The position numbers and the translations under genes were made by a program. From a virus (lineage: Duplodnaviria; Caudoviricetes): DNA of 53,905 bases. Below are positions 9,837 through 52,321 of the stretch, piece by piece (the first letter of the stretch is position 1; each line of letters begins with the position of its first letter). The DNA lies in IMG/VR virus record IMGVR_UViG_3300048836_001050, positions 1 to 53,905 of that record; one strand, 5' to 3'. Under the pieces are notes generated by a model. That model ran no database searches, was not told the DNA's origin, and worked only from the letters and a program-made list of their open reading frames with translations.

Positions 9837-10970
9837 TTACTCGCCGGCCGGCAGCGAAATCCACAGCAGCCCGGCATCGTCGCTTTGCCAGCGCGGCAAG
9901 CCGGTTTCGTCGCAAATATAAACCGTTCCGTCTTCGGCGACGCTGAGGGAGTAATAGCCCTCACCGGCGTTGGCCGCGACGCGTTTGAGATCTCCGACAC
10001 CTTCATCGCTGAGTCGCCGTGTCACCAGCGCGCTGCCCCGTCGCGCCAGCGCCAGACGGATATTTTCGATTCTCACCAGTTGCGGCATTTGCACGCTCGC
10101 TTCAAAGATCGGCGCAGGCACGGTTTGTCTGACTTCGTCCGGCACCGGATAACCGACTTTGCGCCATGTTCGCTGGGTGTCGAAACTTTCATATTCAAAA
10201 TATCCATCGTCTTGAAGTACTCCCAAAATTTCGCGTCCGTCCGGCATTAAAACCAGGCTCGGCTCGCTCGCGCCGCGAACAAAGCCGTGCTCGTTCAACG
10301 TGCGATGAAACGGCCAGCTATGGCCTCCCTGTATGGCCGTCCGGCTCGGCTGGCCGCCCAATGGCCGCGCCGCGACAATCTCGCCAAAAAAGCCCGCTGC
10401 CGTATCCAGCATCCGGCGCACGCCTTCGCGGAAACGGAATTGCCACTCCGGGCGCGTGCTCGCGCCCATGCCCCAGTGATCCTGAATTACCTTGAGCTTT
10501 GCGCCCACGGGCACGTTCATTCGATAAACCGGCGACTGCCACTCCTCGATGATGGTCGCCACAATGTCGGTGTAAGAACTGCCGCCGCCCGGAATCAGAA
10601 TGCCGAACTCGCTGAACTCGGTTCCGCCCAATGTGTAGCTCCACGAAGGATTTTCCGCCGACGTTTCCGCGCCGCCGATAATGGGCGTGGTTATGACTTC
10701 TTTTTGAAACGCCCAGGTGAACAATTGCAATCCGCCGGGAAAGCCGATTGACACCATCCCGATGGTGAGTGAAACGGTTTGCTCGAAGAGCACTCTTTCG
10801 CCATCCACGATTTGAATGATCCACGTGCCGGTGGCGGAGCGGTTGCCGAAACCGAAAGAAAATAACGGCACCGCCCAGACGAGGGCGCGCTTGTATTGAA
10901 ACTGCCCCGCCAGTGCGGTGTTGGGCAGCGTGCCGTCGGACTTGGTTGATTTCCATTCGGTAAATGCCAT
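9837..10970 (-). CDS. putative distal/minor tail protein
   Basis: 377 aa ORF, first minus-strand gene after the tape measure. Confidence 0.55.
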   Translation of the reverse strand: MAFTEWKSTKSDGTLPNTALAGQFQYKRALVWAVPLFSFGFGNRSATGTWIIQIVDGERVLFEQTVSLTIGMVSIGFPGGLQLFTWAFQKEVITTPIIGGAETSAENPSWSYTLGGTEFSEFGILIPGGGSSYTDIVATIIEEWQSPVYRMNVPVGAKLKVIQDHWGMGASTRPEWQFRFREGVRRMLDTAAGFFGEIVAARPLGGQPSRTAIQGGHSWPFHRTLNEHGFVRGASEPSLVLMPDGREILGVLQDDGYFEYESFDTQRTWRKVGYPVPDEVRQTVPAPIFEASVQMPQLVRIENIRLALARRGSALVTRRLSDEGVGDLKRVAANAGEGYYSLSVAEDGTVYICDETGLPRWQSDDAGLLWISLPAGE

Positions 10971-11022
10971 CGCTTTGGTTGAGATTTTGTCGGATGCTGC
11001 CGGTAAGATAAAATTTCAGATT

Positions 11023-11190
11023 ATGGAAAACAAGAATAACGGTGCGCTGCTAATGACTGCATTGAGCCTGCTGTTTTTCGCTGCGATTGCTTTTATCATC
11101 ATTCAATTCATGTACAACGGGCCAGCAGAAAACGAGGCCACCAATAGTCTCGGCACTCAGCTTTCTGAAAAACGCGCGCGGGGTGAATAG
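11023..11190 (+). CDS. small single-TM moron protein 1 resembling a tape measure segment
   Basis: MENKNNGALLMTALSLLFFAAIAFIIIQFMYNGPAENEATNSLGTQLSEKRARGE; AT-rich, antisense to the late operon; TAAAAT at 11009-11014. Confidence 0.75.
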   Translation: MENKNNGALLMTALSLLFFAAIAFIIIQFMYNGPAENEATNSLGTQLSEKRARGE

Positions 11191-11192
11191 TC

Positions 11193-11354
11193 ATGAAAAA
11201 TAATAAAAGTAACTATTTGCTGGTTATCGGACTGAGCCTGCTCTTTTTGGCTGCGGCTGCTTTTGTTACTGTGCAGTTCGGTTTTAATAGACACGCGGAA
11301 AATGAAGCGACTAATAGCCTTTCGATTCAGCTTGCGGAAAATAGAGCGCGTTAA
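11193..11354 (+). CDS. small single-TM moron protein 2, paralogue of the preceding gene
   Basis: Not in the ORF track. MKNNKSNYLLVIGLSLLFLAAAAFVTVQFGFNRHAENEATNSLSIQLAENRAR (53 aa); shares LSLLF.AA.AF, AENEATNSL, QL.E.RAR. Confidence 0.75.
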   Translation: MKNNKSNYLLVIGLSLLFLAAAAFVTVQFGFNRHAENEATNSLSIQLAENRAR

Positions 11355-11372
11355 GTAATCATTTTTCCCATT

Positions 11373-13904
11373 TCAATAGGTAGGCATCGGCGTCATGGCC
11401 GCGTGATGCCGGTTGCGGTGTGCAATGTCAGCCGGACGGTTCGGGATTTTTACGTTCACAATGGTTTCTCCATTCCTTTGATGGGTGTACTGTGGCTGTT
11501 CCTTAGCTCTGACCTCTCTTAGCCACTGCTCATCTTTCCGGCGCTGTTCGCGCTGCCATCTGGGATCGAGGCCGCGATTATACAGCCCTTTCGCTTTTAA
11601 CTCCTCGTCACGCGCGCGCATCCCTTCCGCCGAATGCGGATCGGGCAGTTGTCTTCGCTGCTCTTCGCGTGCGGCTATCGCTTCAGCCGAATTCGGGTTG
11701 TAAATCTGCACATCGCGTTTGCGGGCAAGGTTGCGATAATTTTCAGCAGCGATGCGCTTTGATTCAGCTTCGGTTTCCAAATCGATGATGTCCTGATCGT
11801 CCCACGTCCAGGCGTTTTCTCGATTCAATTTGTCGGCCTGAGCCTGTAATTTGTTTGCGTCCTCTTCGGCCTGTTGCGCCCGTTCTTCCAGCGTCAGTTT
11901 CCGTCCGACATTTTCCTTCGCACGCTTTTCGGATAGCTTGCTACCAAAATCTCCTTCCTCTGCAATTTTTTCAGCCGGACGGTTGTACAGCATATTTGCG
12001 CCCTCACGCAGCGTCACAGCGGCTCCGATCAAAAGCGCTGCCGGTGGGTTAAACGCGGCCAGTGCCGCCGCGCCCAGCCCGACGCCCAACCCCGCCGCCA
12101 TGCTCTCGCCCTGCGATTTTCCCAGCACTTTCAGGTCTTCGTACACACCGACACCGGCGAAAGCACCGGTCAAAGCGCCACCGGCGGCCGCGCCAACCGA
12201 AGTGCGGCCCAGCAGCCCTTTGAGTCCTTTTGAGTTTTTCGCGGCAGTGGCGATCTGACTTTCCCACGCCTTGACCACGTCGCGCGCAGCGAAGCGACCC
12301 GTTAGAGTGTCACGGTAGCGACCGTATCCCAAAAACTGATATCGGCTGGCGGCGCCCGGCAGATTCGTGGCGGAGGTTCCGCCCGTTATCAGCGGGCGCC
12401 CCAGAAAGTCGCGTGCCCTGCCCAATGCTCCCGCAAAACGTCCACCGCGCGCGGTGGCGGCTGCATCCGCCGTTTTCGCCGCTGCCGCCGAAGCATCGCG
12501 CGCCGCGTTCAAAGCCGTCTGCGCGTTGGCCTGCGCCGCGTTCAGCCCGGTGCGCGCGTTGCGAAGCGTCGCAATTCTCTTTTCCGCTTCGAGAACCTTT
12601 TGCGCCGCATCCGCTGCTTTAGCCGCCGCCGCCGCCTCGCCTTTGGTACCGACGGCGGCTTGCGCCGCCTTGGACGCAACAGAGGCTTTGCCGCGTGCCG
12701 TGTCCAGCGCCACCATCGCGCGCGAAAGACTTTTGCTGGTGACGATGCGTGCTTTTTCGATCTGGGTGATTTTTGCCGCTGCCTGAAGTTCTGCCGCCGA
12801 CGCAGCAGCGGCTTTTCCGGTTTGGGTTGCCAATGTGCCTTTGGCCGCTGCCGCCGCGGTCGCCGCGTCACCAGCAGCGCCGATGGCAGCGCCTTCTTTT
12901 CCTGCGACAACCGTTTTTGCGGCTTCGGCGGCGGCGTCGGATTTGGTGGCAAGTTCCAAAGTTTTTTTCGCCGCCGCCGTGGTTTTTAGGATGTGGTTCA
13001 GTTTGATATACGCGCCGGCGATAATCGCGGCCCCGCTTCCAATCCCGGCGAGAATTAACCCGGTTTTGACCAGTTCGGGATTGTTCCTGACAAACTTCGT
13101 CGTCGCGTCCGTTATTCCCGTCAAATCGCTGATCAGGCCGGTGCCGTCGGCAGAAAGGATTTCGCCGAGGGCGTCGCCCAACTGAAAAACCGCGCTTGAA
13201 AGGTTGGAAACCTGTCCGGGAAAGGTCTTGGACGCTTCCATCATCGCGCCGCCGTACAATTCCCGGAAACCTTTCAAAAGCGCATCCACGCCGACATCAC
13301 TCTTGATGGTGTAGGTGCCTTCCATCAACTTTTGTTTTTGTTCGTCGGTCAGGCGCAGTTGCTTTTGGAGAATAGCCAGAGCATTGATGCCGCGATCGCC
13401 CAGCTGATTGATTTCCTCCATCGAAATCCGGCCTTTGCTTTTCATCTGGCCGATGGCACGAGAAATCCCCATGAAATCTTCGGTGCCGCCGCCGCTGCCC
13501 GAAGTCGCATCACCGATATCCCGCAGCGTTCCCATCAACTCTTCGGCCTTGAATCCGACGGCCGAAAGCCGTTGTGCGCCTTTGACGGATTCTTTGAACG
13601 AAAACGGCGAAGTGCGGTCAAACTGGCGCAGTTCCTCGATTTTGGCTTTGGCGGCATTCATGCTGCCGAGGGTTTTTGAGAACCCGATTTCGGCCATCTG
13701 AATTTCGCCGTGCGCTTTCAGCGAGGCAAGGCCCAGCGCGCCCAGCCCGGCAGCACCGGCAGTCCCTAACGCCAAAAGGCGGTCGCTGAGCCGGTCGGCG
13801 CGGCCTTCTGCAGTCGCCATGTCGCCGCCGATGGCGCGCAAGTCGCCGCGCAAGCCGGAAACGCCTTCCTGTATAAATCGGGTGACGACGGTATCGATGG
13901 CCAT
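11373..13904 (-). CDS. tail tape measure protein
   Basis: 843 aa, Ala-rich; tape-measure N-domain signature (LRDIGDATSG...AIGQMKSKGRISMEEINQLGDRGI); hydrophobic segments near the C-terminus. Confidence 0.9.
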   Translation of the reverse strand: MAIDTVVTRFIQEGVSGLRGDLRAIGGDMATAEGRADRLSDRLLALGTAGAAGLGALGLASLKAHGEIQMAEIGFSKTLGSMNAAKAKIEELRQFDRTSPFSFKESVKGAQRLSAVGFKAEELMGTLRDIGDATSGSGGGTEDFMGISRAIGQMKSKGRISMEEINQLGDRGINALAILQKQLRLTDEQKQKLMEGTYTIKSDVGVDALLKGFRELYGGAMMEASKTFPGQVSNLSSAVFQLGDALGEILSADGTGLISDLTGITDATTKFVRNNPELVKTGLILAGIGSGAAIIAGAYIKLNHILKTTAAAKKTLELATKSDAAAEAAKTVVAGKEGAAIGAAGDAATAAAAAKGTLATQTGKAAAASAAELQAAAKITQIEKARIVTSKSLSRAMVALDTARGKASVASKAAQAAVGTKGEAAAAAKAADAAQKVLEAEKRIATLRNARTGLNAAQANAQTALNAARDASAAAAKTADAAATARGGRFAGALGRARDFLGRPLITGGTSATNLPGAASRYQFLGYGRYRDTLTGRFAARDVVKAWESQIATAAKNSKGLKGLLGRTSVGAAAGGALTGAFAGVGVYEDLKVLGKSQGESMAAGLGVGLGAAALAAFNPPAALLIGAAVTLREGANMLYNRPAEKIAEEGDFGSKLSEKRAKENVGRKLTLEERAQQAEEDANKLQAQADKLNRENAWTWDDQDIIDLETEAESKRIAAENYRNLARKRDVQIYNPNSAEAIAAREEQRRQLPDPHSAEGMRARDEELKAKGLYNRGLDPRWQREQRRKDEQWLREVRAKEQPQYTHQRNGETIVNVKIPNRPADIAHRNRHHAAMTPMPTY

Positions 13905-19691: not shown

Positions 19692-19772
19692 ATTCTACTC
19701 CTGTGGAAATTGGTTTGTCAAGAGCTACTAATTAAACTCGCGATTATCGTGTTGCAAAATTAACTACAAAAA

Positions 19773-19832
19773 CAAAAACGCCCGCATCCAAAGCACGCGG
19801 GCCACTTGGCCGGAGTACTCTTGATGCGGGCG
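19773..19832 (-). terminator. long imperfect hairpin with U-tract (terminator/attenuator upstream of the scaffold gene)
   Basis: On minus: CGCCCGCATC...GATGCGGGCG then TTTTTG; inner GGCC-AAGT-GGCC stem; contains a GAGTACTC. Confidence 0.6.
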
Positions 19833-19881
19833 GCGGGTAACTTTGCGATCCGTTAAACGAGGCCCTTTATGTAGTTGTGAT

Positions 19882-20070
19882 TTACGGCTTTTTCAAGTCG
19901 GCAAACCCGCTCTTCCGGCTTGCGCCATGACTTACGGCATCCTGCCTCCTGAGCGTTTCACGGAATTTCTCCGCGCCCGCGCGCACGTTCGGATCATCGC
20001 TTTTTTGCAGATGCCCGAACGTGCGCACGAGGAGCTGTTTAAGTTGCGTGCATTCATGGCACATCGTCAC
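19882..20070 (-). CDS. small hypothetical protein
   Basis: 62 aa ORF with CxxC, overlapping the previous gene end. Confidence 0.45.
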   Translation of the reverse strand: MTMCHECTQLKQLLVRTFGHLQKSDDPNVRAGAEKFRETLRRQDAVSHGASRKSGFADLKKP

Positions 20071-20248
20071 CCCTCCCGAGCTCCCGGCGCAGCTTTTTCA
20101 TGGCTCTGTTTGCCGAGCGCTCGTCCTCTTGCGTCCACTCGATTTCCTCCGCCACATGGCTGGTAATATCAAAGCCGGGACTATCAGCGGGCGCCACCGG
20201 TTTTGTGGGCGATGATTGTTTGGTGTCGTTCATTTTGCTTTGCTCCAT
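20054..20248 (-). CDS. small hypothetical protein (candidate immunity partner)
   Basis: 64 aa, starts 7 nt after the minor head gene stop. Confidence 0.55.
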   Translation of the reverse strand: MEQSKMNDTKQSSPTKPVAPADSPGFDITSHVAEEIEWTQEDERSANRAMKKLRRELGRGDDVP

Positions 20249-20255
20249 GTCTTAC

Positions 20256-27587: not shown

Positions 27588-27818
27588 ATGAATACAACTA
27601 CCACCAACCCGCCCGATATTGAAGTCCTCGCCGCCCGCGTCCGACTTTGCAAAAAGACCGTTGCCGACTACAAGCGCGGTCATGCGCTCGGTCATGTTTC
27701 CTACGACGATCTCGCCGCCGCAGGCAAAGAACTTTCCGCTGCCATGTTCGAGTACTCCCAGGCGAAGTTTCCAAACGTCAAGCCGCGCCGTATTCCGTAT
27801 CAGGCGATCATTCGCTGA
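27588..27818 (+). CDS. small hypothetical moron protein (76 aa)
   Basis: MNTTTTNPPDIEVLAARVRLCKK...PYQAIIR fills the gap between the methylase and terS on the opposite strand. Confidence 0.65.
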   Translation: MNTTTTNPPDIEVLAARVRLCKKTVADYKRGHALGHVSYDDLAAAGKELSAAMFEYSQAKFPNVKPRRIPYQAIIR

Positions 27819-29334
27819 CACCTTCTTCGCCTTCTTCCACGCTCAAATCCCCGAATTCGGTTGCTCCCAGAATATCGGGGATTTTTTGTGGATCGCCTTT
27901 ATAAAAGACCTGAACGTACTGATGCGTTCGTCCCAACTTGCGATATTTTCCAAACTGCGCGTTCACGCGGATCGGCAGGCTGCCGAACGGCGTGAGCAGA
28001 ATCGCGTCGTTGTAATACGAGCAGCCCGCGCTCGTAAACGCCTCGACGGTATCTTCAATAAACGGCAATAAGCAGCCCTTGTGCTCGCCTTCTTTGGGAT
28101 CGCGGCACGAGCCGATCACGAAGCACGCGAAGCGATTTTCTTTCAGGCGCGCGGCGGCGGCGTGGATAATGGCGCGATATCCCGCGCGAAAGTCGGCATA
28201 GTCCATGCGCGACAAGTCGCGCGGATCGTCGGAGTAGATCTCCAGCCCCGCATACGGCGGGCAGGAAAAAATATAATCAGCCTGCCAGTCCGCGCCGATG
28301 CCTTCCTGCTGCGTCAGAAGTGATTCGAGCTGCGTACTGTCGCCGTTGATCCACGTCGGCTCATGAGCGATGCCGCGCTCGCCCCATGCCTCTTTAACGC
28401 GAGGCCACGTTTCTATGTTCGCGCTGATTTGCTTCGGGTTCAAGTCAAGACCGACATACTCGCGTCCCAGCAATGCGGCCATCGCTCCGCGCGTCACGCC
28501 GCCCGAAAACGGATCGAGTACTTTGCCGCCTTCAGGACAAAACCAGCGATAAGCCAATTCGCACAGGACGGGATCGAAGCCGCTCGTGCCGTGCAAAACG
28601 TTCATGCCGCGCTTTTTGGCTTCTTCGATGATTTCCGGCCAGGACGGAGTACGACCCCATTCCTGAATTAACTGCGTGCGCAGCTCGTACATCGCGGGCG
28701 ACTGGCAACTGTTGGAATACGTGATGTTGTCGTCGCGCCCGATTTCGCTGAACATCCCAAAGGCGTGCCAGGCGCGCTTGCGCTCCTGCCAGTAGCCCTG
28801 CCGCGCATCAAGCACGCTAAAAGGCGGAACGCCAAAGCGCGCAGCGAGCGTAGCTTTGGCCTGCGTTTTCTGCTCCTCGCTGGCCGCGTCCTCGGCGTTC
28901 TGCTGCTGGGATTCCAATTCACTCAGCAGATCGCTTAAAAACGCGTCGTCGTAACCCGTGCCTTCGAGGGTGCCCTGCTCTTCCTGAATCTCTTTCAAAA
29001 GCGCGGCGAGTGTGGTCTCATCATCGCTGCCCAGCCGCGCGGTGCGATTGTCGCTCGCCAGCACGCGCAGGGCATGGGCGTCGGAATCGGTTTCGATGAT
29101 CTCGACGGGAATCTGAGCCATTCCCAATTCGCGCGCCGCCATCACACGGTGGTTGCCGGCGAGGACTTTGCCGCTGCGTTTGTCCACCACCACGCGCCCC
29201 CAGAATCCGTTTTGCCGAAACGATTCGATGATGGATTCCAGATCGCCACGATTGGGATTCGCTTCGTGCAGGGACAGCGAATTCGGCTCGCGCATAGCGG
29301 TTTCGATGTTGAGGATGCGAATGTCCTGGCTCAT
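27808..29334 (-). CDS. ParB/Srx-like domain fused to an N4/N6 DNA methyltransferase
   Basis: NPNRGD...LAGNHRVMAA...DNRT; VLDPFSGG and SCPPY motifs. Confidence 0.88.
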   Translation of the reverse strand: MSQDIRILNIETAMREPNSLSLHEANPNRGDLESIIESFRQNGFWGRVVVDKRSGKVLAGNHRVMAARELGMAQIPVEIIETDSDAHALRVLASDNRTARLGSDDETTLAALLKEIQEEQGTLEGTGYDDAFLSDLLSELESQQQNAEDAASEEQKTQAKATLAARFGVPPFSVLDARQGYWQERKRAWHAFGMFSEIGRDDNITYSNSCQSPAMYELRTQLIQEWGRTPSWPEIIEEAKKRGMNVLHGTSGFDPVLCELAYRWFCPEGGKVLDPFSGGVTRGAMAALLGREYVGLDLNPKQISANIETWPRVKEAWGERGIAHEPTWINGDSTQLESLLTQQEGIGADWQADYIFSCPPYAGLEIYSDDPRDLSRMDYADFRAGYRAIIHAAAARLKENRFACFVIGSCRDPKEGEHKGCLLPFIEDTVEAFTSAGCSYYNDAILLTPFGSLPIRVNAQFGKYRKLGRTHQYVQVFYKGDPQKIPDILGATEFGDLSVEEGEEGVSE

Positions 29335-29701: not shown

Positions 29702-30304
29702 TTATGCCTCGTCGCTTTCCCGGCGCCGGTGGCAGTCGCCGATCCAGCCCAGCACTTCGCCGCCCGGCCCAAACATGCGCTTGCCGGAAATCCGCACCGG
29801 AGCGCCATTCACGAAACGGTAATGAAACTCGAAATCGCGCTTGTCGGCAACCGCGCTTTTCCACGCCGCCGAAAGTTCTTCGCGGTCATCGGGATGCACC
29901 AGGGTTTTCCAGCCCAGGCCCATGAATTCGCCCGGCGCGGCACCCGCCAGGCGAGCCATCGCCGGATTGACGTAGGTGCATAGCCCGTTGGCATCGGTTT
30001 CCCAGATACCGACCGCGTCCAGGTTATACATTGCGAGTTGGCGCTGCCCGATGAGGCCGATATTACGATTGGCGACATTGACCTTCTGCTCGATGCGGTT
30101 GGCTGCGTCGCGCAGGCTGCCGCCGCCGTTGGGGCGCAGTTCCCGCTCGATGAAGAACAGCGCCTCGCGCAATTTTTTGATGCCCTCGAGCGTCGGCTTG
30201 CCGATGAACTTCCAGATCACCGCGCAGGCCGTCAGCACGCCCGCCGCCTGTCCGAGAAAAACAGTGAGCGTCTGCCAGCTTTGGGCATCGAGGTGCAAGT
30301 CCAT
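29702..30304 (-). CDS. membrane-anchored PAS domain protein
   Basis: N-terminal TM, ELRPNGGGSLRD, then PAS signature IWETDANGLCTYVNPA...GLGWKTLVHPDDRE...FEFHYRF. Confidence 0.85.
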   Translation of the reverse strand: MDLHLDAQSWQTLTVFLGQAAGVLTACAVIWKFIGKPTLEGIKKLREALFFIERELRPNGGGSLRDAANRIEQKVNVANRNIGLIGQRQLAMYNLDAVGIWETDANGLCTYVNPAMARLAGAAPGEFMGLGWKTLVHPDDREELSAAWKSAVADKRDFEFHYRFVNGAPVRISGKRMFGPGGEVLGWIGDCHRRRESDEA

Positions 30305-30392
30305 AAACGTAGTTTTTGAGAAAACGTAAAAGTTGAAAATCAACGCCGAAAGAAGGAGTACTCCCGGCGCTGATTTTTGCTCCTTGCCGAAA

Positions 30393-30791
30393 TTACGCGC
30401 TCGCTTCCGGCGCATCGCCTTCGGGCACGTCGCCTTCCGGCGTCGCTTCACCGGTTTCGCCGGATTCGGTTTCGCCGCTTTCGGCGGGTAATGTTTCGAC
30501 AGTGCCGCTCATCGAAGCGCTGATGGCTTTCAGTTCCGCGATTTCGTCGGTCAAGTCAATCTGCGGCGTGTTGGCGTTCTTTTCTTCCAGCGCCGCGATC
30601 GTCGCATCAGTGCGCGTTTTGAATCCTTCAAACGCGGTTTTCACTTCGCTAATCGCCTGCTGTAACTGCTGTTCCTGTTCGTTCATCTTTTTCTCCAAAT
30701 ACTGAAATTTTTTGCTATGTGAATAGCCCACGATGGCGTTCAAAATCACGCCGCCGCTGACTAACAAAAGCCCTGCTTCAAGTGGCGTCAT
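30393..30791 (-). CDS. membrane-anchored coiled-coil protein (lysis region)
   Basis: N-terminal TM, coiled coil, acidic tail. Confidence 0.6.
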   Translation of the reverse strand: MTPLEAGLLLVSGGVILNAIVGYSHSKKFQYLEKKMNEQEQQLQQAISEVKTAFEGFKTRTDATIAALEEKNANTPQIDLTDEIAELKAISASMSGTVETLPAESGETESGETGEATPEGDVPEGDAPEASA

Positions 30792-31126
30792 TCGTCCACT
30801 CGCTCATAGGTCGCTTCGAACGCATCCGGCTTGCAGGGATAATACTGCTCGCCGTTTTGCTCGGTGATAATCCAATCGCCTGGACAGACCATGTGGCCAC
30901 CCTGCACATCATCAATCCATCCGTGCTCGTGAAAAGTGTGGTTGCACTGATTGCAAATTTCCCTGCCGCTAAAATCAGGAAGTCGAAAGTAGCGCACAAC
31001 TGCACCTTCGGTGCGTTCGCCCGCAACTATTTTGCTCGCAGGCGGCAAATTATCTTCGGGATGATCGCCGTTCTTAAACCACTGTGTCGCTTCCACGATG
31101 ATCGGCTTCTTTCTAAATTTCGCCAC
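30788..31126 (-). CDS. conserved phage protein (PGDWII/PGDYG-like)
   Basis: KFRKKPIIVEA...VCPGDWII...YPCKPDAFEATYE. Confidence 0.8.
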   Translation of the reverse strand: MAKFRKKPIIVEATQWFKNGDHPEDNLPPASKIVAGERTEGAVVRYFRLPDFSGREICNQCNHTFHEHGWIDDVQGGHMVCPGDWIITEQNGEQYYPCKPDAFEATYERVDE

Positions 31127-31305
31127 TTTTCAAACTCCCCTTGCGCGATGATAACGCTGCGCTGCCGTCAAGCGATGCGTGCGATGCTGGCGTTTGCCCG
31201 TGCCGTAAAACGCGCGCGGATTGCCGCCCAAACCTTGCGGCTTTTTCAAACTCAATCCAGCTATCAAAGGCGGCATCAATGCCCACGGTTTTCTCTTTGT
31301 CATAA

Positions 31306-32151
31306 TTATTGAATCACCACCTTCCCGAATCCATCATCGAACGCTTTCAGTCCGTTGTGCGCGGCCAGTTTCGTCACCGGCAGCCACGCGCGCCCTTCGA
31401 TGATCTTCGGTTGCGCGGCGACTTCGCGCCCGGTGATCACCACGCTTTGCGCTTCCCGGTTCCAGCCCAATGCAGGCACGCCGTTTTTCTCCTGCCAGGC
31501 GCCGCCGATCCAGTGCGCCCACTTCCAGGCCGGTAGCCAGGCGCGGCCTTCGATGAGCGGCACGGTCGCGATTTGCTTCCCGCCCAGCAAGAGCGGCCAC
31601 ATCTGGGCGCCTTCAAGCGGCGCGGGAACCGCCACAGGCGAAACCTCGGCGCCTTTGGCCGTCGCGCCCTGCGGTAACAACGCCGCCCAGTTCACATACA
31701 GATAGCGAGAGGAGTTTTTGCGAAAGCGCGCATACACGCCGTTGCCGTTGCGTGATCCGCCCGTGTTGGTATTGCCCTCCACGGTTTTCACGCCCTGCGC
31801 GGCGATGTCGGTGACGAGAAAAATATGCGTCGCGTCGTATTTCGAGGCCATCACCAGGCCGCACGCGCCCACTGCGGGAGTACTCCCGATAATCTTTTTG
31901 CGCCGCGCCCAGTTCAAAATCTCGTCACACGACGCGCTGCGGTACCAGACCTGATCGCACAGCGTTTTGCCCAGAACCGTGAGCAGGTTCCACGCCTGGA
32001 AACTCGCGCACCATGGATAGCCCAGTCCGGGCAAGAGATCGGCGCGCTGATACTCGTCCACGCGCCGCCCGCGATTGGTATTGCCGATCTCGCGCACGCC
32101 GACTTCGCCGAGCGCGTTCTGAATGACCGCCTGCACGATGTTCGCACTCAT
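31306..32151 (-). CDS. endolysin: CHAP amidase plus C-terminal copper-amine-oxidase-N-like (stalk) domain
   Basis: PWCASF, HIFLV, TVEGNT; two IEGRAWLP repeats. Confidence 0.85.
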   Translation of the reverse strand: MSANIVQAVIQNALGEVGVREIGNTNRGRRVDEYQRADLLPGLGYPWCASFQAWNLLTVLGKTLCDQVWYRSASCDEILNWARRKKIIGSTPAVGACGLVMASKYDATHIFLVTDIAAQGVKTVEGNTNTGGSRNGNGVYARFRKNSSRYLYVNWAALLPQGATAKGAEVSPVAVPAPLEGAQMWPLLLGGKQIATVPLIEGRAWLPAWKWAHWIGGAWQEKNGVPALGWNREAQSVVITGREVAAQPKIIEGRAWLPVTKLAAHNGLKAFDDGFGKVVIQ

Positions 32152-32903
32152 ACTCCACCGCCTTTGAAGGCGTCGCCTTGCGTCATGCCTTGCGGCGGCA
32201 AAATCGTCGCGAAAAGCTGCTGCGCTTCATCGCTCTCGGTGATGTCTTCGCCCGTTTCGGGGAAAGGTTCGAGCGGCGGCGGCGCGGGAGGAATGAGATT
32301 TGTCTGGGGCGATGCGACCGGCGCGCTCACAATCTGCGTTGCCGCTTTAGGCACCGCGTCCGGTTTGGTATCGAGCAGAATTTTCAGGGCGTCCACCGCT
32401 GAAATCACCGATTGCGCTTTGTCAATCTGCTTGTTGATTTTCTGCGCCGCCGTCGGCGTTTTGGAAGTTGCTTTTTCGAGCTTGTCGGGCAAGCCGGTAT
32501 CACGCCAGAAGTTGGTAAAGAGAATTTTCGTTGCGCTCAAAATCACCGTCGCGTTGATTAAAAACCACGAGCCAAAGTTGGCGAGTTGCTCGCCAAAACC
32601 ACCGCCGCTAATGAAACGAAAGGAGTATTCCTGATTCAAAAGCGTCGCCAAAAGCGCCACGCCAAAGCAAATCACGCCACTGACGATGCGCTTGGTGGTT
32701 TGCGGCCAGTGGTGCTGCAAAATGAACGGAATCACCACGACCGGAAGGAGCCAACTTGTGATGAGGTTGAGCAACATTTCCGGCGCGCCGAGCGGCATCG
32801 AGGCGGCAGTACTCCCGGCCTCTTGCGCCCACGCTGCGCCGCATGACAAAAACAGCACGAATAGCGCCCACAACATCAACTTCAAATTGGTTTTCATGCT
32901 CAT
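32148..32903 (-). CDS. putative holin
   Basis: Several hydrophobic segments, ATGA-coupled to the endolysin. Confidence 0.65.
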   Translation of the reverse strand: MSMKTNLKLMLWALFVLFLSCGAAWAQEAGSTAASMPLGAPEMLLNLITSWLLPVVVIPFILQHHWPQTTKRIVSGVICFGVALLATLLNQEYSFRFISGGGFGEQLANFGSWFLINATVILSATKILFTNFWRDTGLPDKLEKATSKTPTAAQKINKQIDKAQSVISAVDALKILLDTKPDAVPKAATQIVSAPVASPQTNLIPPAPPPLEPFPETGEDITESDEAQQLFATILPPQGMTQGDAFKGGGV

Positions 32904-33169
32904 CGCTCCCAAGCGTTCACCGCTCCGTCAGATAGCTGTATTGATAATCCGCCCACGCCTCGAACGGCGTGTCGCCAAAGCCGACAACAGCACTGCCGTT
33001 CCTGCGGCCTTCCACGCGCCACAGGGCGCTGTCATGGCACAACCGCGCGCGATGCGTCCAGGCCACGAAGCGATAATACGCCGCGCTCCCAAACTCGGCG
33101 ATGCGTTCTGCGCAACTGTGCCTGTGTTCGTTTTTCATCGCTCGCTCCATCGCTTTAAAATCCCGCTCA

Positions 33170-46400: not shown

Positions 46401-46600
46401 GATTCTCGTCTCCTCAAATTAGTAGTTGCATTCACCATCATGTCAATGCATGGCTGTCATGTTAAGCAGCTTTAACCACTGGTTCAAGGGAAGTTTCAAA
46501 AGATTTCTCAAGAATGTTTTCAAGAATTTCACAGAAATTACTGGAAAATTTGAGCGGCGGCTGGCACTGCTTGAATTGGCAGTGTCGGCTCCAGCCGCCG

Positions 46601-46858
46601 CTAAAAGGCGCGCTCCGCTTGCACCTTTTCTGCTTCCCGCAATTTCGACCAATACGCCGGCGGGAAAAAATACAGCGCCGGATCGCACTTCAAATGCGCC
46701 CCCATGCGGCGGCACAAATTGTCGCTGCCTCCACCGTGAATTTCGGCGCTGCGAATGGTGCGCGGATGGCAATTGACGCGGCGCGCCAAACGTTTCAAAC
46801 CGCTCGCGCCGCCATACCCCGCCGCCTCGCGCGCTTGCTGCGCGGGAGTACTCCTCAT
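46601..46858 (-). CDS. HTH-like small protein
   Basis: QAREAAGY...LKRLARRVNCHPRTIRSAE. Confidence 0.6.
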   Translation of the reverse strand: MRSTPAQQAREAAGYGGASGLKRLARRVNCHPRTIRSAEIHGGGSDNLCRRMGAHLKCDPALYFFPPAYWSKLREAEKVQAERAF

Positions 46859-46864
46859 GTTCTT

Positions 46865-47158
46865 TCACGCTCCTTCGACTTCGCCGATCACAACGCCCGC
46901 TTCGTTTTCGATCACGATTTTGTAGCGGCGCGCCTCATGAATTTTGCGGCGCGCGTCTTTGGCTTTTTGCGTAAACACGTCGGCGGCGTGCTGCGCGTCC
47001 GAACTGTTCATGCCGCGCGCCGTCAGCACCAGATAAATAATCCCGCCGATCTCGCCCTCAGGCGCATCGCCCGCCAGCTTGTGGCTTTCCGCTTCCACGC
47101 GGCTTAAACGTACTTCGATCATAATCTCACTCTCCGTGATAAAATTGTCTTTGCTCAC
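46865..47158 (-). CDS. hypothetical protein
   Basis: GGAG SD, GTG start. Confidence 0.6.
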   Translation of the reverse strand: MSKDNFITESEIMIEVRLSRVEAESHKLAGDAPEGEIGGIIYLVLTARGMNSSDAQHAADVFTQKAKDARRKIHEARRYKIVIENEAGVVIGEVEGA

Positions 47159-47206
47159 TCTCCGTGAGCCGCCCGTAGCGACTGGTCCTCGCTGCGGGCA
47201 ATTTTC

Positions 47207-47416
47207 TTATGCGGGCACCGCCAAAAACTCGTCGCGCCGCGCTTTGTATTCCAGCACGTCGCTTTCCAGCAACAGCACACGCACGCTCTTACCAAAGCAG
47301 ATTCGTTCGGCCTTCAACTCTCCTTCCTTGATGAGCTGCTGCACCCGTGCGCTGCTCACACCAATCAATACTGCGGCTTGCATAACGCCGATTTTCTTTT
47401 GTTTTGCTGGCTGCAT
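47207..47416 (-). CDS. excisionase-type (HTH_17-like) DNA-binding protein in the Cro position
   Basis: GVMQAAVLIGVSSARVQQLIKEGELKA; GAGGGG SD. Confidence 0.8.
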   Translation of the reverse strand: MQPAKQKKIGVMQAAVLIGVSSARVQQLIKEGELKAERICFGKSVRVLLLESDVLEYKARRDEFLAVPA

Positions 47417-47465
47417 TTCCCCTCCTCTTACGTAAATAACGCCTCTTAGGTGTGCGTATGTGACT

Positions 47466-47538
47466 ATTCTAAGCGTTATAAACACACTTGTCAAGTTTTT
47501 TGAACTAACTATCATTTATAAGCGTTTATTAGCACTTA
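47466..47538 (-). promoter_or_regulatory. early lytic promoter and candidate operators of the genetic switch
   Basis: Minus-strand TTGACA (47494-47489), 17 nt, TAGAAT (47471-47466); related boxes TAAGCGTT...CACTT at 47470-47489 and 47519-47538. Confidence 0.75.
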
Positions 47539-47551
47539 ATGAGGTGCTGAA

Positions 47552-48034
47552 ATGGCAACGTCCATCCCAGTCCAGAGAATTTTTATGTCACGCAGAACTC
47601 CTTCAGGTCGTCGTCCTATGGGTGGAATCGGTGGAAGTGATCGCCTGCCACCTGTCTATGCCTCTGAGGACTTTGTTCAAAAAGTCACTGAACAGGCCGA
47701 TGCGTCAGGTATGGGCTTTTCGGAATTTGGACGCGAAGCGTTTCAGTTCTATATCGAGCATCGTGGCACCAAACGTGAAAACGAGATCGCCTTCGAGCTG
47801 AGCGAGCGCGACATGAGCGAGTTGGCAAAGCTTTCCGACGACGCGCTCAAGCTGGACGACCCCGACTTGTTCGCCAAAATGATCGTGCGCCGGGCGCTGG
47901 ATTTGGGGCCGGAAGTGGTGCGCGAGTTTCTGCTGGGGCAAGTCAAGCGCGAGGTGGCAGCGCGCGTGGAAGCGGAGAACGAAGCGCGGGCCAACACGCC
48001 GACTTCTTCGCGCAAGACGCGCAAAGCGGCTTAG
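47552..48034 (+). CDS. putative immunity repressor with RHH-like domain(s)
   Basis: Divergent from the Cro-position gene; LPPVYASEDFVQKVTEQADASGMGFSEFGREAF and a second similar unit. Confidence 0.55.
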   Translation: MATSIPVQRIFMSRRTPSGRRPMGGIGGSDRLPPVYASEDFVQKVTEQADASGMGFSEFGREAFQFYIEHRGTKRENEIAFELSERDMSELAKLSDDALKLDDPDLFAKMIVRRALDLGPEVVREFLLGQVKREVAARVEAENEARANTPTSSRKTRKAA

Positions 48035-48048
48035 CAATTCAAAACATC

Positions 48049-48666
48049 ATGTCCGCCCCCGCCTGCGATTATTATCCCGATCCGCCGGTATGCGGTTACG
48101 AACCGGAGTACTCCCGACCTGCGGATTTATCGTGGATGAAAAGTTGCCTAAAGACGCAACATCGGCCTCGGGTGATACATCGGTCTCAGCCGCAACCTCG
48201 GGCCGGAGCAGAGCGGTCGTTGGGAAGCACTCCGCTTTTCCTCGTGCCGCACAGCAGCGCGGCTAACGGGCTGCGCGAAGAGTTTGCGCCGCCGTCGTTA
48301 ACCGTCATCGCGGGCGGAAAAACCGCCCAAATGAAAGCCCTGGTGGAAGAACCGCGACGCGACGGTGTGGCCGTGGTGGTGGAGTGCGCGGCGGAGCTGG
48401 AGTGGGTGTGCCAGGTGTTCAAGCTGGAAGCCAACGAGCGGGCGATTTTGGACGTGGAGCCGCACCTGCGCCGCGTGACGCGCGCAGCCAATCAGCTCAC
48501 GCGCGAAGCCGCACGCGTACGGCGCAAGCAATTAATGAACGAATCTGACGATAGTTTGTTTTTGGAATTGGAGATGAACAACTCCAATGAGCACTCTGTG
48601 CGGATTCCAGTGTTTAACAATCTGGACGCTGCTGTCGAATACCTGAAGCGGCGGCGCGAGAGATAA
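48049..48666 (+). CDS. hypothetical protein
   Basis: 205 aa ORF after the repressor candidate; start uncertain. Confidence 0.55.
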   Translation: MSAPACDYYPDPPVCGYEPEYSRPADLSWMKSCLKTQHRPRVIHRSQPQPRAGAERSLGSTPLFLVPHSSAANGLREEFAPPSLTVIAGGKTAQMKALVEEPRRDGVAVVVECAAELEWVCQVFKLEANERAILDVEPHLRRVTRAANQLTREAARVRRKQLMNESDDSLFLELEMNNSNEHSVRIPVFNNLDAAVEYLKRRRER

Positions 48667-48711
48667 GTTCGTTTGCATCGGTTCACCGGCAGAACCACTA
48701 AGGAGTAAAAA

Positions 48712-49380
48712 ATGCAATGTCCCGCGTGTAAATACATGATGGATTCGTTTGACACCGAATGTCCTCGGTGTCAAGGAAAAGGAATCGCACCGGCTCCCAC
48801 TGCACCGCCGCCTCCAACTCCCCCGGCGCAAAAGCAGACGCTGCCTCCTGCCCCTCCCGCAGCGCCGACACTTTCACCTGCCCTGAAAAACGTCGGGTTT
48901 TGCTACAAATGCGGGGAAAAGATTCATAAAACAGCCGCTCACTGTAGCCACTGTGGGGCCATGCAGGGGAAGCAAGTCGGCGGGTTCCCTTGGGGCAGCG
49001 TCATCGGCGGCCTATTTTTGATTCTTTTGGTTGGCGGCGTTCTTTATGGTTTTAAGTTCGCGGGCGGCTTAATTAACAGTGATGGCACGCTGACCGACGA
49101 CATCAAAGTCACCAGGAAAATCAAAGTCACCAAAGAAGAGCTTCAAGATCAGATTCAATCGGAATACACCAGCGAGCTATTGGCGAAACAAACTGACGTG
49201 GAATCAAGCGAAAAGGTATCATGCACGAAGGTTGAGCTGGTGAAGGAGTCTGAAACCGATGTCGCCATCAAATACACCGGTTTTGCCGAGTTGTCCGACA
49301 ACACCAGTATTGATGTCGTCGTCACCATCGATAAGAGCGACGGAAGCAGAATTTGGAAAACGGGCCGTGGGCGTTCGTAG
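48712..49380 (+). CDS. double zinc-ribbon membrane protein
   Basis: CPAC..CPRC, Pro-rich linker, CYKC..CSHC, TM, extracytoplasmic domain. Confidence 0.8.
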   Translation: MQCPACKYMMDSFDTECPRCQGKGIAPAPTAPPPPTPPAQKQTLPPAPPAAPTLSPALKNVGFCYKCGEKIHKTAAHCSHCGAMQGKQVGGFPWGSVIGGLFLILLVGGVLYGFKFAGGLINSDGTLTDDIKVTRKIKVTKEELQDQIQSEYTSELLAKQTDVESSEKVSCTKVELVKESETDVAIKYTGFAELSDNTSIDVVVTIDKSDGSRIWKTGRGRS

Positions 49381-49434
49381 GGGCATGACGTAGATATAAA
49401 CGGCCACCGGCAGGCCAGCTTTGGAGAAACCAAT

Positions 49435-50610: not shown

Positions 50611-50688
50611 AGAAATCGCAGGAGTCGTTGATTGAGTACAGATATCTAAAAAAGCAAGCACCGGCAGCTTAGCTTTCATGAGTAAAAA

Positions 50689-50820
50689 ATGCAATGTCCC
50701 GCGTGCCGTTACATGGTGGACGACTTCGATAAGGAGTGCCCGCGCTGCCACGGCCAGGGTATCGCGCCGCCACCAGAAATGGCTGACCGCAGCCAGGGCG
50801 GGAATTTGCCGGGATTTTAA
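50689..50820 (+). pseudogene. 43-aa truncated paralogue of the 48712 gene
   Basis: MQCPACRYMVDDFDKECPRCHGQGIAPPP; shares GAGTAAAAAATGCAATGTCCCGCGTG with the 48712 gene start. Confidence 0.7.
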
Positions 50821-50857
50821 TCAGGGACGGGATTTCGTTCAGTCCGGGAGGATTTCG

Positions 50858-52069: not shown

Positions 52070-52139
52070 CTTGGCGATCGCCTTTTGACAAAAAGCCAGA
52101 CCACAAGCGGTCACCGGCAGGCCGGCGACGATCTTAGGC

Positions 52140-52280
52140 GTGGAAGTCGGCGGTGGGCGCGTGAACAACATCGGGCTGATGGCGCAGCGCCAGAACGGGA
52201 TTCTGTTTGGGTTTGGGGCTTCCATCGTGAGCGCCATTGTTTATTTTTTGCTGCAAAACCAGATTAAGCAGAGTGAGTAA
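52140..52280 (+). CDS. small single-TM protein or gene remnant (46 aa)
   Basis: Not in the ORF track. GTG start: MEVGGGRVNNIGLMAQRQNGILFGFGASIVSAIVYFLLQNQIKQSE; lies exactly between two repeat copies. Confidence 0.5.
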   Translation: MEVGGGRVNNIGLMAQRQNGILFGFGASIVSAIVYFLLQNQIKQSE

Positions 52281-52321
52281 AAGCGGCCACCGGCAGGCCA
52301 GCGAGTGGGAGAGTTGAGACG

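Follow-up and report, generated by a model that had tools for sequence, protein, structure and literature searches.

Mini-genes beside the tape measure gene

Do two small genes, lying backward next to the gene for a phage tape measure protein (TMP), encode mimics of a part of this same TMP? The question is raised by a locus on a 53.9-kb IMG/VR siphovirus contig, which was analyzed over its whole length of 53,905 nt (the window) and represents ~57% of a genome. Two mini-genes, m1 and m2, occupy the 402-nt gap between the TMP stop codon and the next tail gene and run on the opposite strand (Table 1). The initial annotation had described them as two paralogous plus-strand genes after the TMP stop, each with a single transmembrane (TM) segment, and both the coordinates and the anatomy proved correct. 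It had also called them antisense. This label holds only relative to read-through of the tail operon; counted from the ATG at 11023, neither mini-gene overlaps a coding sequence. The m1 start at 11023 was picked by alignment to m2 and to a third family member (P0006, described below), and gene callers gave longer m1 forms of 71 and 90 aa. The TMP matched 11 PHROG families, 8 of which are named tape measure.

Table 1. Features of the m1/m2 locus and the adjoining tail genes (positions in the window)
Feature	Position	Strand	Description
Tail gene next to TMP	9837-10970	-	377 aa; distal-tail position; without family match (Pfam, PHROGs)
Promoter-like site	10987-11014	+	TTGTCG, 16-nt spacer, TAAAAT; ends 8 nt before the m1 ATG
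m1	11023-11190	+	55 aa; short polar N-terminus, one TM helix (about residues 9-29), 26-aa polar tail with TMP-like motif
m2	11193-11354	+	53 aa; m1 paralogue; starts 2 nt past the m1 stop
TMP	11373-13904	-	843 aa; Pfam TMP_3, E 8.4e-18
Weak terminator-like hairpin and T-run	11432-11453 (hairpin 11432-11444)	+	5-bp stem, about 80 nt past the m2 stop
TMP residues 639-663	11916-11990	-	LYNRPAEKIAEEGDFGSKLSEKRAK; motif common to the mini-proteins; kept in the TMP relative P0003
TMP residues 604-636	11997-12095	-	Gly/Ala-rich hydrophobic segment immediately preceding the motif; Kyte-Doolittle 19-mer 1.66-1.67

m1 and m2 are genuine genes encoding membrane proteins

The m1 and m2 proteins are 58% identical, with 31 of 55 alignment columns invariant. 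Over 53 codons, the two genes differ at 14 first, 12 second, and 32 third positions. With pN at 0.247 and pS at 0.770 (pN/pS about 0.3), the synonymous sites are saturated, yet the protein has been retained, which supports purifying selection on both genes. When the five other frames were read, four had a stop codon in at least one copy; the first reverse-complement frame stood apart, with a stop in m1 and none in m2.

A third homologue, P0006 (49 aa), is encoded on a separate, unrelated contig of 16772 b. A full HMMER search over 1.84 billion representatives recovered it with an E-value of 5.4e-5, without any use of the TMP. At E ≤ 0.001, this search returned six proteins, namely m1, an m2 variant (P0004), P0006, P0005, P0007, and P0008, and no further mini-protein. 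P0004 carries 2 substitutions relative to m2, is found on 3 other contigs, and keeps the reading frame. P0005, P0007, and P0008 were rejected as spurious, as they are long proteins in which the profile matches 5-13 stretches; P0007 and P0008 are visibly repetitive.

The reading that m1 and m2 are not genes, with the gap being a non-coding spacer or a degenerate remnant, is highly improbable. It could draw on the failure to find a Shine-Dalgarno sequence upstream of m1 and on a word-based protein search with m1, which returned m1 itself only and did not recover m2, but it is opposed by the third-position excess and the pN/pS ratio, by the stops in the alternative frames, by the homologue on the unrelated contig, and by the intact frame of the m2 variant.

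Each mini-protein has a single strongly hydrophobic segment of 19-21 residues (Kyte-Doolittle 19-mer 2.79 and 2.67). The AF2 model of m1 is a single helix spanning residues 2-52 (pLDDT 81.8), with a dip in confidence at residues 31-40. When lysine and arginine residues were counted by eye according to the positive-inside rule, m2 was richer N-terminally and P0006 C-terminally. Because these biases are opposite, the topology of the mini-proteins is ambiguous. Within the family, conservation is highest in the polar tail, and nine consecutive residues are the same in m1 and m2. Since the tail was conserved despite synonymous saturation, a specific protein contact is likelier than plain membrane damage.

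No significant match to the mini-proteins was obtained in Pfam, PHROGs, NCBIfam, or PADLOC. At E ≤ 10, the three mini-proteins gave just two weak and unrelated Pfam matches (EssA, 0.2; Pilin_N, 0.12), and the best score in the ESM Atlas (0.81) was inside the range of shuffled proteins. P0006 carries the JGI label "uncharacterized protein YoxC", which Pfam and NCBIfam did not reproduce.

Composition and signals of the mini-genes

In composition, m1 and m2 resemble a moron. Their GC content is 0.41-0.46, compared to 0.55-0.68 in the flanks, and their GC3 is 0.55 (m1) and 0.42 (m2), compared to a median of 0.69 and a minimum of 0.52 among 33 phage genes. The promoter-like site upstream of m1 was the only one found in 10500-11900, where shuffled sequences yielded 0.9 ± 0.8; because shuffles yield similar numbers, only the position of this site counts. 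If used, it would produce a leaderless or near-leaderless m1 mRNA. The m2 gene is preceded by a Shine-Dalgarno-like GGGGTG, 7 nt upstream. Terminator-like sites were not above chance (3 found, 2.4 ± 1.4 in shuffles). The hairpin listed in Table 1 lies within the 3'-terminal part of the TMP gene, over the codons of its second NRPA copy. In 10500-12000, Rfam gave no match at E ≤ 1. A look-up of sequencing runs, RNA included, yielded none.

No integrase or other lysogeny gene was recognized in the window, and expression of the mini-genes from a prophage therefore cannot be assumed. This finding would fit a role in the phage's own lytic cycle, where the mini-proteins could impose an early block on further injections or keep newly made TMP out of the producer's membrane. 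A precedent is Imm of the lytic phage T4, which is encoded by an early gene and binds the TMP (bioRxiv 10.64898/2026.03.06.709160). We nevertheless consider a lytic role improbable. The mini-genes are oriented opposite to the late operon, which speaks against joint expression with the TMP, and the low GC content and separate promoter-like site suit a moron. Moreover, lysogeny genes may sit outside the window because only ~57% of the genome is covered.

A role as holin or spanin was also considered and is unnecessary. The endolysin gene is flanked by candidates for membrane proteins, identified by hydropathy only, and the mini-genes are thus not needed for lysis.

The m1 tail resembles a TMP segment beyond chance

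The initial annotation had proposed that the mini-protein tails align with a TMP segment that follows a hydrophobic region. The aligned TMP part indeed directly follows the Gly/Ala-rich residues 604-636. In the alignment of the m1 tail with TMP residues 639-663, 13 of the 25 columns are identical, with 1 gap. Different codons are used at 8 of the 13 identical residues; the initial annotation had noted several such cases.

The Smith-Waterman score of m1 against the TMP was 55. This score was reached by none of 2000 whole-protein shuffles (maximum 52), none of 10000 segment shuffles (maximum 52), and none of 10000 composition-preserving shuffles of the m1 tail only (maximum 48; Gumbel p 2.5e-5). 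When the TMP was block-shuffled, 1 of 5000 versions reached it. The m1 tail was also compared with 1049 six-frame segments of the window (86352 aa); with the mini-gene frames themselves (133 and 76) excluded, its top match was the TMP, and the next segment scored 31. None of 640 natural decoy frames of 40-80 aa reached 55, the highest scoring 51. In a six-frame search of the phage's own genome, the E-value was 0.0024. The proposed alignment is thus real for m1, whereas m2 alone is not significant: its score against the TMP was reached by 243 of 2000 and, in a larger set, by 834 of 10000 shuffles. The best alignment of m2 on the TMP nevertheless falls on the same segment as that of m1.

The TMP motif is shared at the family level

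The only TMP relative found, P0003, is encoded on a Logan contig and is 38% identical over the C-terminal part, with the motif conserved. Against P0003, m1 aligned without gaps at the homologous site (score 47; 1 of 3000 shuffles), and P0006 aligned at the same site (score 44; 8 of 3000 shuffles). Against the TMP of this phage, P0006 showed no similarity (score 27; 1821 of 3000 shuffles). With an HMM of the two TMP motifs, m1 scored 20.1 bits (0 of 3000 shuffles), P0006 7.2 bits (2 of 3000), and m2 1.5 bits (51 of 3000). When this HMM was run on 1760 six-frame background segments, the best non-TMP segment was the m1 frame (18.6 bits) and the next scored 5.7 bits.

Profile-profile comparison by hhalign pointed in the same direction. 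For the whole TMP pair, the P-value was 1.4e-3 without P0006 and improved to 4.6e-4 once it was added; for the 88-column segment, the corresponding values were 4.5e-5 and 1.1e-5. The hhalign probabilities were modest, at 18-33% for the whole TMP and 69-82% for the segment. In a five-way MAFFT alignment, the TM helix was lined up with the hydrophobic segment of the TMP and the tail with the motif, and the N, E, and A columns, which do not vary among the five sequences, coincide with TMP-invariant positions. As summarized by eye from this alignment, the motif reads roughly N-R-P-x-E-x-x-A, a short spacer, L/F-G-x-x-L/I-S/A, and a basic end. The mini-proteins have only this C-terminal module in common with the TMP and are not tape measures.

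The likeness is nonetheless short, and the initial annotation was made without a prior hypothesis. A short Ala/Glu/Lys/Arg-rich tail could match a long Ala/Glu/Lys/Arg-rich protein by chance and be picked out afterwards. The aligned length of about 25 residues, the small distance of the top natural decoy from the m1 score, the result for m2 alone, and the low hhalign probability against the whole TMP would all fit such a match. Chance is still a rather improbable explanation, given the tail shuffles, the large gap to the next six-frame segment, the invariant columns, and the profile-profile P-value that became better with P0006. In particular, P0006, which was collected blind to the TMP, matches both the homologous site in P0003 and the TMP motif HMM. 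These alignments support a likeness of the tails to the TMP post-hydrophobic motif that is above chance and is also a family trait.

A single-sequence AF2 model of TMP residues 561-720 had low confidence (pLDDT 66.6), with the hydrophobic parts predicted as helical and the first half of the motif as a low-confidence linker. Complex prediction of TMP residues 560-700 with the mini-protein alignment gave no answer (score 0.00 in two uncontrolled runs) and is evidence neither way.

Searches for further relatives

In viral contigs, no relative was found with the TMP, the m1 and m2 alignment, or the four-sequence alignment as query. The sole match of the TMP-pair query in this set (L004) carries a 480-aa TMP with an unrelated C-terminus and was rejected. 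A candidate P0006 relative (L005) was also rejected, as it matched over 13 residues only, which was judged to be chance in a TM helix. A degenerate motif pattern gave 3 matches in the viral contigs, none of them in a TMP-like frame. Metagenome contigs and genome contigs likewise contained no detected relative. Among GenBank phages, there was no DNA match and no match to the TMP C-terminus, and P0006 had a match only at E = 7. The nearest TerL relatives in this set are from Streptomyces and Actinoplanes phages (47-48% identity), which does not settle the host. When TMP residues 596-680 were compared with shorter proteins in a word-based search, none of 2384 candidates had E ≤ 10.

Across these searches, the mini family and the TMP family were found together in this phage only. 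For the P0006 contig, no TMP relative was found beyond P0003, and no mini-protein was detected for the phage of P0003 because the representatives search gave no other.

Origin of the likeness

The initial annotation had suggested that the mini-genes might have arisen by inverted duplication. At the DNA level, a recent event of this kind is not supported. At the identical m1/TMP residues, the same codon is used in 5 of 13 cases, compared to 5.26 ± 1.73 expected from codon usage. The GC3 of the mini-genes is low, as described above, and the mini family aligns without gaps to the P0003 motif, whereas a gap is needed for the phage's own TMP. The best inverted repeat in 10900-12200 pairs the m1 and TMP YN.PAE codons (22 nt, 82%). 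This repeat was not counted as evidence because the same region contains chance pairs (19 nt at 79%).

Proposed function of m1 and m2

Tentatively, and with somewhat less than even confidence, we propose that m1 and m2 are a backward-inserted and independently transcribed moron of a rare siphovirus, whose products serve as membrane decoys that interfere with TMP-mediated DNA entry. We infer expression, topology, binding, and the block of DNA entry alike. As the tail matches the motif after the last hydrophobic segment of the TMP, a mini-protein would in effect be a free-standing copy of the TMP membrane-insertion module. Superinfection exclusion at the cytoplasmic membrane would then seem the likeliest role, with membrane-seated mini-proteins presenting the TMP motif as a decoy. 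They might occupy the partner required by the incoming TMP, either a domain of the TMP or a membrane protein of the host. Alternatively, they might co-assemble with the hydrophobic helices of the incoming TMP. Either way, the DNA conduit would fail to form. The backward gene pair with TMP-like tails suggests, but does not prove, such a decoy against DNA entry by rival phages.

The mini-proteins may instead be real moron-encoded membrane peptides with a job unrelated to the TMP, such as a type I toxin-like peptide, an abortive-infection peptide, or a host-fitness factor, with the motif being a relic or a generic membrane-adjacent helix. Type I toxins such as Hok, Ldr, and Ibs are about 50 aa long, with one TM helix, a charged tail, and tandem paralogues. 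The mini-proteins share this size, the single helix, and the tandem arrangement, and the opposite strand is transcribed in both cases, as the late tail transcript would run antisense to the mini-genes. It also fits such a job that m2 and P0006 have drifted from the motif of the phage's own TMP and that the mini and TMP families co-occur, within our searches, in this phage only. We regard this alternative as unlikely, although well short of negligible. Membership in a type I toxin-antitoxin family was not found in Rfam (E ≤ 1, 10500-12000), Pfam, or NCBIfam, and PADLOC gave no match. The polar tail is long and is the most strongly conserved part, which points to a specific protein contact, and all three family members beat their own shuffles on the TMP motif HMM.

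The decoy reading can be carried one step further. The mini-proteins would then be dominant-negative "cut-outs" and the first exclusion proteins that act by homologous mimicry of a channel-forming subunit, with m1 tuned to the TMP type of its own phage and m2 and P0006 to others. The fit of P0006 to the P0003-type motif is in line with this extended version, which we consider doubtful.

How the DNA of long-tailed phages passes across the cytoplasmic membrane, and how this passage is excluded, is only now becoming resolved. Recent work suggests that the TMP forms the conduit and that Imm, gp15, Ltp, and SNIPE all target it. If the decoy reading is true, it would single out the TMP motif as a contact with a function in the entry machine and would provide a simple competitive mechanism of exclusion. 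A sequence rule, i.e., comparison of the mini-protein tail with the TMP motif, might then predict which phages are excluded, and defense genes could be seeded by phage structural genes. Because the case comprises a single phage lineage, two TMPs, and three distinct mini-proteins, we regard it as a lead rather than a result.

Comparison with known exclusion systems

A close parallel in gene arrangement is gp15 of phage HK97, a small protein of the inner membrane with a single TM segment, which is encoded by a moron within the tail operon, adjoining the TMP gene (PMC3594210; PMC10883804). It stops genome injection, and a tail swap lifts this block (PMC3594210). The block depends on the tail region of the incoming phage (PMC3594210; PMC10883804), whereas the function of m1 and m2 is proposed here. 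In contrast to the mini-genes, the gp15 gene lies upstream of the TMP gene and its product is related to the host protein YebO; a resemblance to the TMP is not reported. The m1 and m2 genes, in contrast, are a pair of paralogues that follow the TMP gene and run on the other strand, and their products gave no significant Pfam match and end in a TMP-motif tail. Pfam includes a YebO model, and the Pfam search at E ≤ 10 revealed no gp15/YebO homology, as it gave EssA and Pilin_N only, both weak.

In phage TP-J34, the prophage exclusion protein Ltp acts on the TMP. Changes in the TMP allow its block to be overcome, and a cited title names the TMP as the target of the exclusion lipoprotein (PMC10883804). 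Ltp differs from the mini-proteins in being a lipoprotein of a Gram-positive host (PMC10883804), and its architecture is unlike theirs. The defense protein SNIPE contacts TMPs, and its N-terminal adapters borrow pieces resembling membrane or phage-entry proteins, e.g., the P22 tail needle, to reach the injection site (PMC13190303). SNIPE, however, is a large nuclease in which the borrowed piece is a localization adapter instead of a mini-protein of its own, and a copy of a TMP segment is not reported for it (PMC13190303).

A close parallel in the proposed mechanism is T4 Imm, a membrane protein that halts DNA entry through binding to the TMP and disturbs the interplay between the TM region and the helical bundle of the TMP (bioRxiv 10.64898/2026.03.06.709160). 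The mini-proteins showed no homology to Imm, with no Pfam or PHROG match and one predicted helix instead of four. Imm consists of helix 1 and the core helices 2-4 and is not described as a TMP homologue (bioRxiv 10.64898/2026.03.06.709160), whereas m1 and m2 are single-helix proteins that resemble the TM-plus-motif module of the TMP itself.

m1 and m2 are genes in the gap beside the tape measure gene

The tape measure protein (TMP) gene has its stop codon at 11373, and the minus-strand gene that comes next starts at 10970. The 402-nt gap between them is occupied by two plus-strand reading frames, m1 and m2. As the initial annotation had stated, these are two paralogous frames of 53–55 aa with a single transmembrane (TM) segment; they share 58% identity, with 31 of 55 columns invariant. 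In both products, the N-terminus is short and polar, a single stretch is strongly hydrophobic (Kyte-Doolittle 19-mer peak of 2.79 in m1 and 2.67 in m2), and the polar tail has 24–26 residues. AF2, run with a four-row alignment, predicted m1 to be one long helix (residues 2–52, mean pLDDT 81.8), with a dip in confidence at residues 31–40, the site of N-G-P. Differences between the two genes number 14, 12, and 32 at first, second, and third codon positions, respectively (pN 0.247, pS 0.770), and four of the five other reading frames hold a stop in at least one copy. Because the protein was kept though synonymous sites are saturated, m1 and m2 are real genes, which we state with high confidence; that these frames are not genes is scarcely credible. 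Their variants occur on 3–4 near-identical contigs, and the m1 start at 11023 is backed by the aligned N-termini of three mini-proteins.

Several traits of the pair resemble those of a moron. The GC content is 0.41–0.46 over the mini-genes and 0.55–0.68 on both flanks. GC3 is 0.55 for m1 and 0.42 for m2; for 33 minus-strand genes, the median is 0.69 and the lowest value 0.52. No Shine-Dalgarno sequence precedes the m1 start. If the sigma-70-like site ahead of m1 is used, the m1 mRNA would be leaderless or nearly so, which fits this absence; a GGGGTG element stands 7 nt ahead of m2. Promoter-like and terminator-like sites were equally common in shuffled sequence, so that these two are favored by position alone. 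Rfam gave no match within 10500–12000 at E ≤ 1.

Features of the window
Feature	Position	Strand	Description
Sigma-70-like site	10987–11014	+	TTGTCG, 16-nt spacer, TAAAAT; 8 nt ahead of m1 ATG
m1	11023–11190	+	55-aa ORF
m2	11193–11354	+	53-aa ORF; 2 nt beyond m1
TMP	11373–13904	-	843 aa; Pfam TMP_3, E 8.4e-18; 11 PHROG families matched, 8 named tape measure
14-nt direct repeat, first copy	11428–11441		within TMP gene
Terminator-like site	11432–11453		weak hairpin and T-run
14-nt direct repeat, second copy	11971–11984		within TMP gene
TMP middle	12400–12900		long Ala-rich low-complexity stretch
Gap among head genes	19692–20255		564 nt
Fusion protein	27808–29334	-	508 aa; ParB-like nuclease domain and DNA methyltransferase; adjoins small terminase gene
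Lysis-like cluster	29702–32912		around endolysin
Endolysin	31306–32151	-	PHROG/Pfam
Plus-strand block	46514–52636	+	sole long plus-strand block
HSDR_N-type endonuclease	49435–50610	+	in plus-strand block
TPR protein	50678–52069	+	in plus-strand block
BLIP-like small protein	52322–52636	+	in plus-strand block
O-like replication initiator, Gam-like protein, two DNA methyltransferases		-	PHROG/Pfam
Small terminase, large terminase, major head protein		-	PHROG/Pfam
Large tail genes		-	no family match (PHROG/Pfam)

Relatives of the mini-proteins and of TMP

An m1+m2 profile, run in a full HMMER search against 1.84 billion cluster representatives, yielded six proteins at E ≤ 0.001. Two of them were m1 itself, there 71 aa long, and P0004, an m2 variant that differs by two substitutions. 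P0006 (49 aa; E 5.4e-5, 45% identity to m1) was a third, distinct homologue, encoded on just one JGI contig (16772 bases). The remaining three were long proteins, matched by the profile in 5–13 stretches, and were discarded as spurious. Pfam, PHROG, NCBIfam, PADLOC, and ESM Atlas gave no functional hint for the mini-proteins. With TMP residues 560–842 as query, a word-based search through 5.8 billion proteins found one TMP relative, the 628-aa P0003 (encoded on a 22351-base Logan contig), with 38% identity to the window's TMP across the C-terminal part. The search of representatives surfaced no additional mini-proteins, so none was detected for the phage of P0003, and protein searches surfaced no TMP relative besides P0003 for the contig of P0006. 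Small ORFs are often missed by gene calling. As far as protein searches show, the mini-protein family and the window's TMP family are found together in this phage alone.

The m1 tail resembles a conserved TMP segment

The m1 tail (MYNGPAENEA-TNSLGTQLSEKRAR) aligned with TMP residues 639–663 (LYNRPAEKIAEEGDFGSKLSEKRAK, 11916–11990) with 13 identities in 25 columns, one gap, and a score of 55 (BLOSUM62, gap penalties 11/1). This score was reached by none of 2000 whole-protein shuffles (maximum 52), none of 10000 shuffles confined to N-terminus, TM, and tail, and none of 10000 tail-only shuffles (maximum 48; Gumbel p 2.5e-5). One of 5000 TMP sequences shuffled by 25-residue blocks reached it; none of 640 natural 40–80-aa frames, taken from the window and from two unrelated loci, did (top score 51). 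The window yields 1049 six-frame segments (86352 aa); among them, TMP was the best match to the m1 tail and the next scored 31, the mini-gene frames (133 and 76) aside. A six-frame search of the phage's own genome gave E 0.0024. The alignment of m2 fell on the same TMP segment and scored 35, but 243 of 2000 and 834 of 10000 shuffles did as well, which makes it weak by itself. Thus, the similarity to TMP that the initial annotation ascribed to the post-TM part of both proteins held against shuffled sequences for m1 and not for m2 alone. The top TMP scores of out-of-frame decoys fell in the Ala-rich middle of TMP (residues ~335–500), a stretch missing from P0003, which is 215 aa shorter.

The motif segment is kept in P0003 (LVNRPMERAAEDG-LGARISQEQQKG), with N, R, P, E, A, E, G, G, S, and K invariant between the two TMPs. 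With 3000 tail shuffles per pair, m1 aligned with P0003 without a gap at the exactly homologous site (score 47; 1/3000), and P0006 aligned at this same site (score 44; 8/3000). The match of m2 to P0003 was not significant (746/3000), and P0006 aligned with the window's TMP at a different site (score 27; 1821/3000). A 29-column HMM built from the two TMP motifs gave 20.1 bits for m1 (0/3000 shuffles), 7.2 for P0006 (2/3000), and 1.5 for m2 (51/3000). When this HMM was run on 1760 six-frame segments (129157 aa), its top non-TMP match was the m1 frame (18.6 bits; next 5.7). In hhalign, adding P0006 to the mini family improved P from 1.4e-3 (probability 18%) to 4.6e-4 (33%) against the whole TMP pair, and from 4.5e-5 (69%) to 1.1e-5 (82%) against an 88-column TMP segment. 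In a five-way MAFFT alignment, the entire mini-proteins were collinear with TMP residues 610–664, so placed that the TM helix covered the hydrophobic segment rich in Gly and Ala, and the tail covered the motif. Three residues, N, E, and A, were invariant across the five sequences. Since P0006 was found independently of TMP, its match to the TMP motif is a genuine replication. We regard the resemblance as real; its significance is modest but has been replicated. A chance likeness, which the shuffles of m2 by itself would allow, is improbable.

The TMP gene also contains an exact 14-nt direct repeat, both copies of which read N-R-P-A followed by D or E on the minus strand. One copy belongs to the motif (TMP residues 640–644), the other to the highly conserved C-terminal end (IPNRPADIA, residues 819–827), and both are kept in P0003. 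TMP therefore bears the NRPA element twice.

Origin of the mini-genes

The initial annotation suggested that the mini-genes may have arisen by inverted duplication. A recent event of this kind, starting from the TMP of this phage, is not supported. The 13 residues identical between m1 and TMP use the same codon at 5 positions, where codon usage alone predicts 5.26 ± 1.73. The GC3 of m1 and m2, strongly unlike that of the phage genes, also counts against it, and the motif spacing in the mini family is that of P0003, not of the window's TMP. A 22-nt inverted repeat (82%) links the YN.PAE codons of m1 and TMP; near-equal chance pairs occur nearby. With a recent duplication unsupported, the relation would be old, or would reflect transfer from another TMP lineage, or would stem from a module that TMP and the mini-proteins each acquired from a third source. 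A parallel is HK97 gp15, which a passage of PMC3594210 derives from host YebO.

Genome context

The window is an entire IMG/VR virus record of 53905 bases, linear, with a CheckV completeness estimate of 57%. PHROG and Pfam scans showed a siphovirus-like arrangement on the minus strand and recognized no integrase or other lysogeny gene in this window of ~57% of the genome. The closest large terminases are those of Streptomyces and Actinoplanes phages (47%–48% identity); as a pointer to the host, this kinship does not fit the GC content of 57.5%. The plus-strand block, which diverges from the minus-strand early genes and holds four further ORFs without family match, could be an accessory/defense region or a lysogeny-side module. 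The gap among the head genes, with GC down to 0.50–0.53 and short ORFs only, none convincing, could be a further insertion or a regulatory region.

A 254-aa protein with three hydrophobic segments, as judged by hydropathy only, is encoded immediately upstream of the endolysin. On the downstream side come a 132-aa protein, a few hundred bases away, which begins with a hydrophobic segment at its N-terminus and is otherwise polar, and also a 249-aa protein with two hydrophobic segments. The 132-aa protein looks like an i-spanin, which, if right, would imply a two-membrane host. With such candidate membrane proteins (hydropathy only) already flanking the endolysin, a lysis role for m1 and m2 is unlikely.

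Proposed function

From anatomy and precedent, we tentatively propose, at somewhat less than an even chance, that m1 and m2 act in superinfection exclusion as decoys of a TMP module. Such a mini-protein would be a free-standing copy of the last hydrophobic helix of TMP and its conserved flanking motif, and would make a good competitor of the incoming TMP, either by taking up the binding partner of this module or by co-assembling unproductively with the incoming TMP. Small membrane proteins encoded next to tail genes stop DNA entry by acting upon TMP, according to passages of PMC3594210, PMC10883804, and bioRxiv 10.64898/2026.03.06.709160; this precedent, together with the TMP-like module, favors a decoy. 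HK97 gp15 is described there as a protein of the inner membrane and as a moron adjoining the TMP gene, whose block is relieved by a tail swap (PMC3594210) that brings in the HK022 tail tube and TMP genes (PMC10883804). The exclusion block of TP-J34 is overcome by TMP changes, and, going by a title cited in the same source, its exclusion lipoprotein targets TMP (PMC10883804). SNIPE, in a passage of PMC13190303, contacts TMPs and has N-terminal adapters like membrane proteins or phage entry proteins. For T4 Imm, the bioRxiv text reports that a TMP fragment co-purifies with it and that it disturbs the interplay of TM region and helical bundle in TMP (10.64898/2026.03.06.709160). A lytic-cycle role like that of Imm, whose mechanism would overlap with that of a decoy, is quite unlikely for m1 and m2.

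Several observations speak against a decoy: m2 and P0006 have drifted from the motif of the window's TMP, the membrane topology of the mini-proteins is ambiguous, the promoter-like and terminator-like sites are no commoner than chance, the window shows no recognized lysogeny gene, the mini family and the TMP family co-occur in this phage alone as far as protein searches show, and the family libraries offer no hint of function. That m1 and m2 are membrane peptides whose role is unrelated, for example type I toxin-like or abortive-infection ones, is rather unlikely, though readily conceivable. The TMP-module decoy is plausible as a mechanism and would be new in its details. No title or abstract listed by full-text literature searches described an exclusion protein copied in sequence from part of a TMP. 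In kind, it would be familiar, with m1 and m2 a variant of those small membrane proteins, encoded by morons, that act on entry mediated by TMP.
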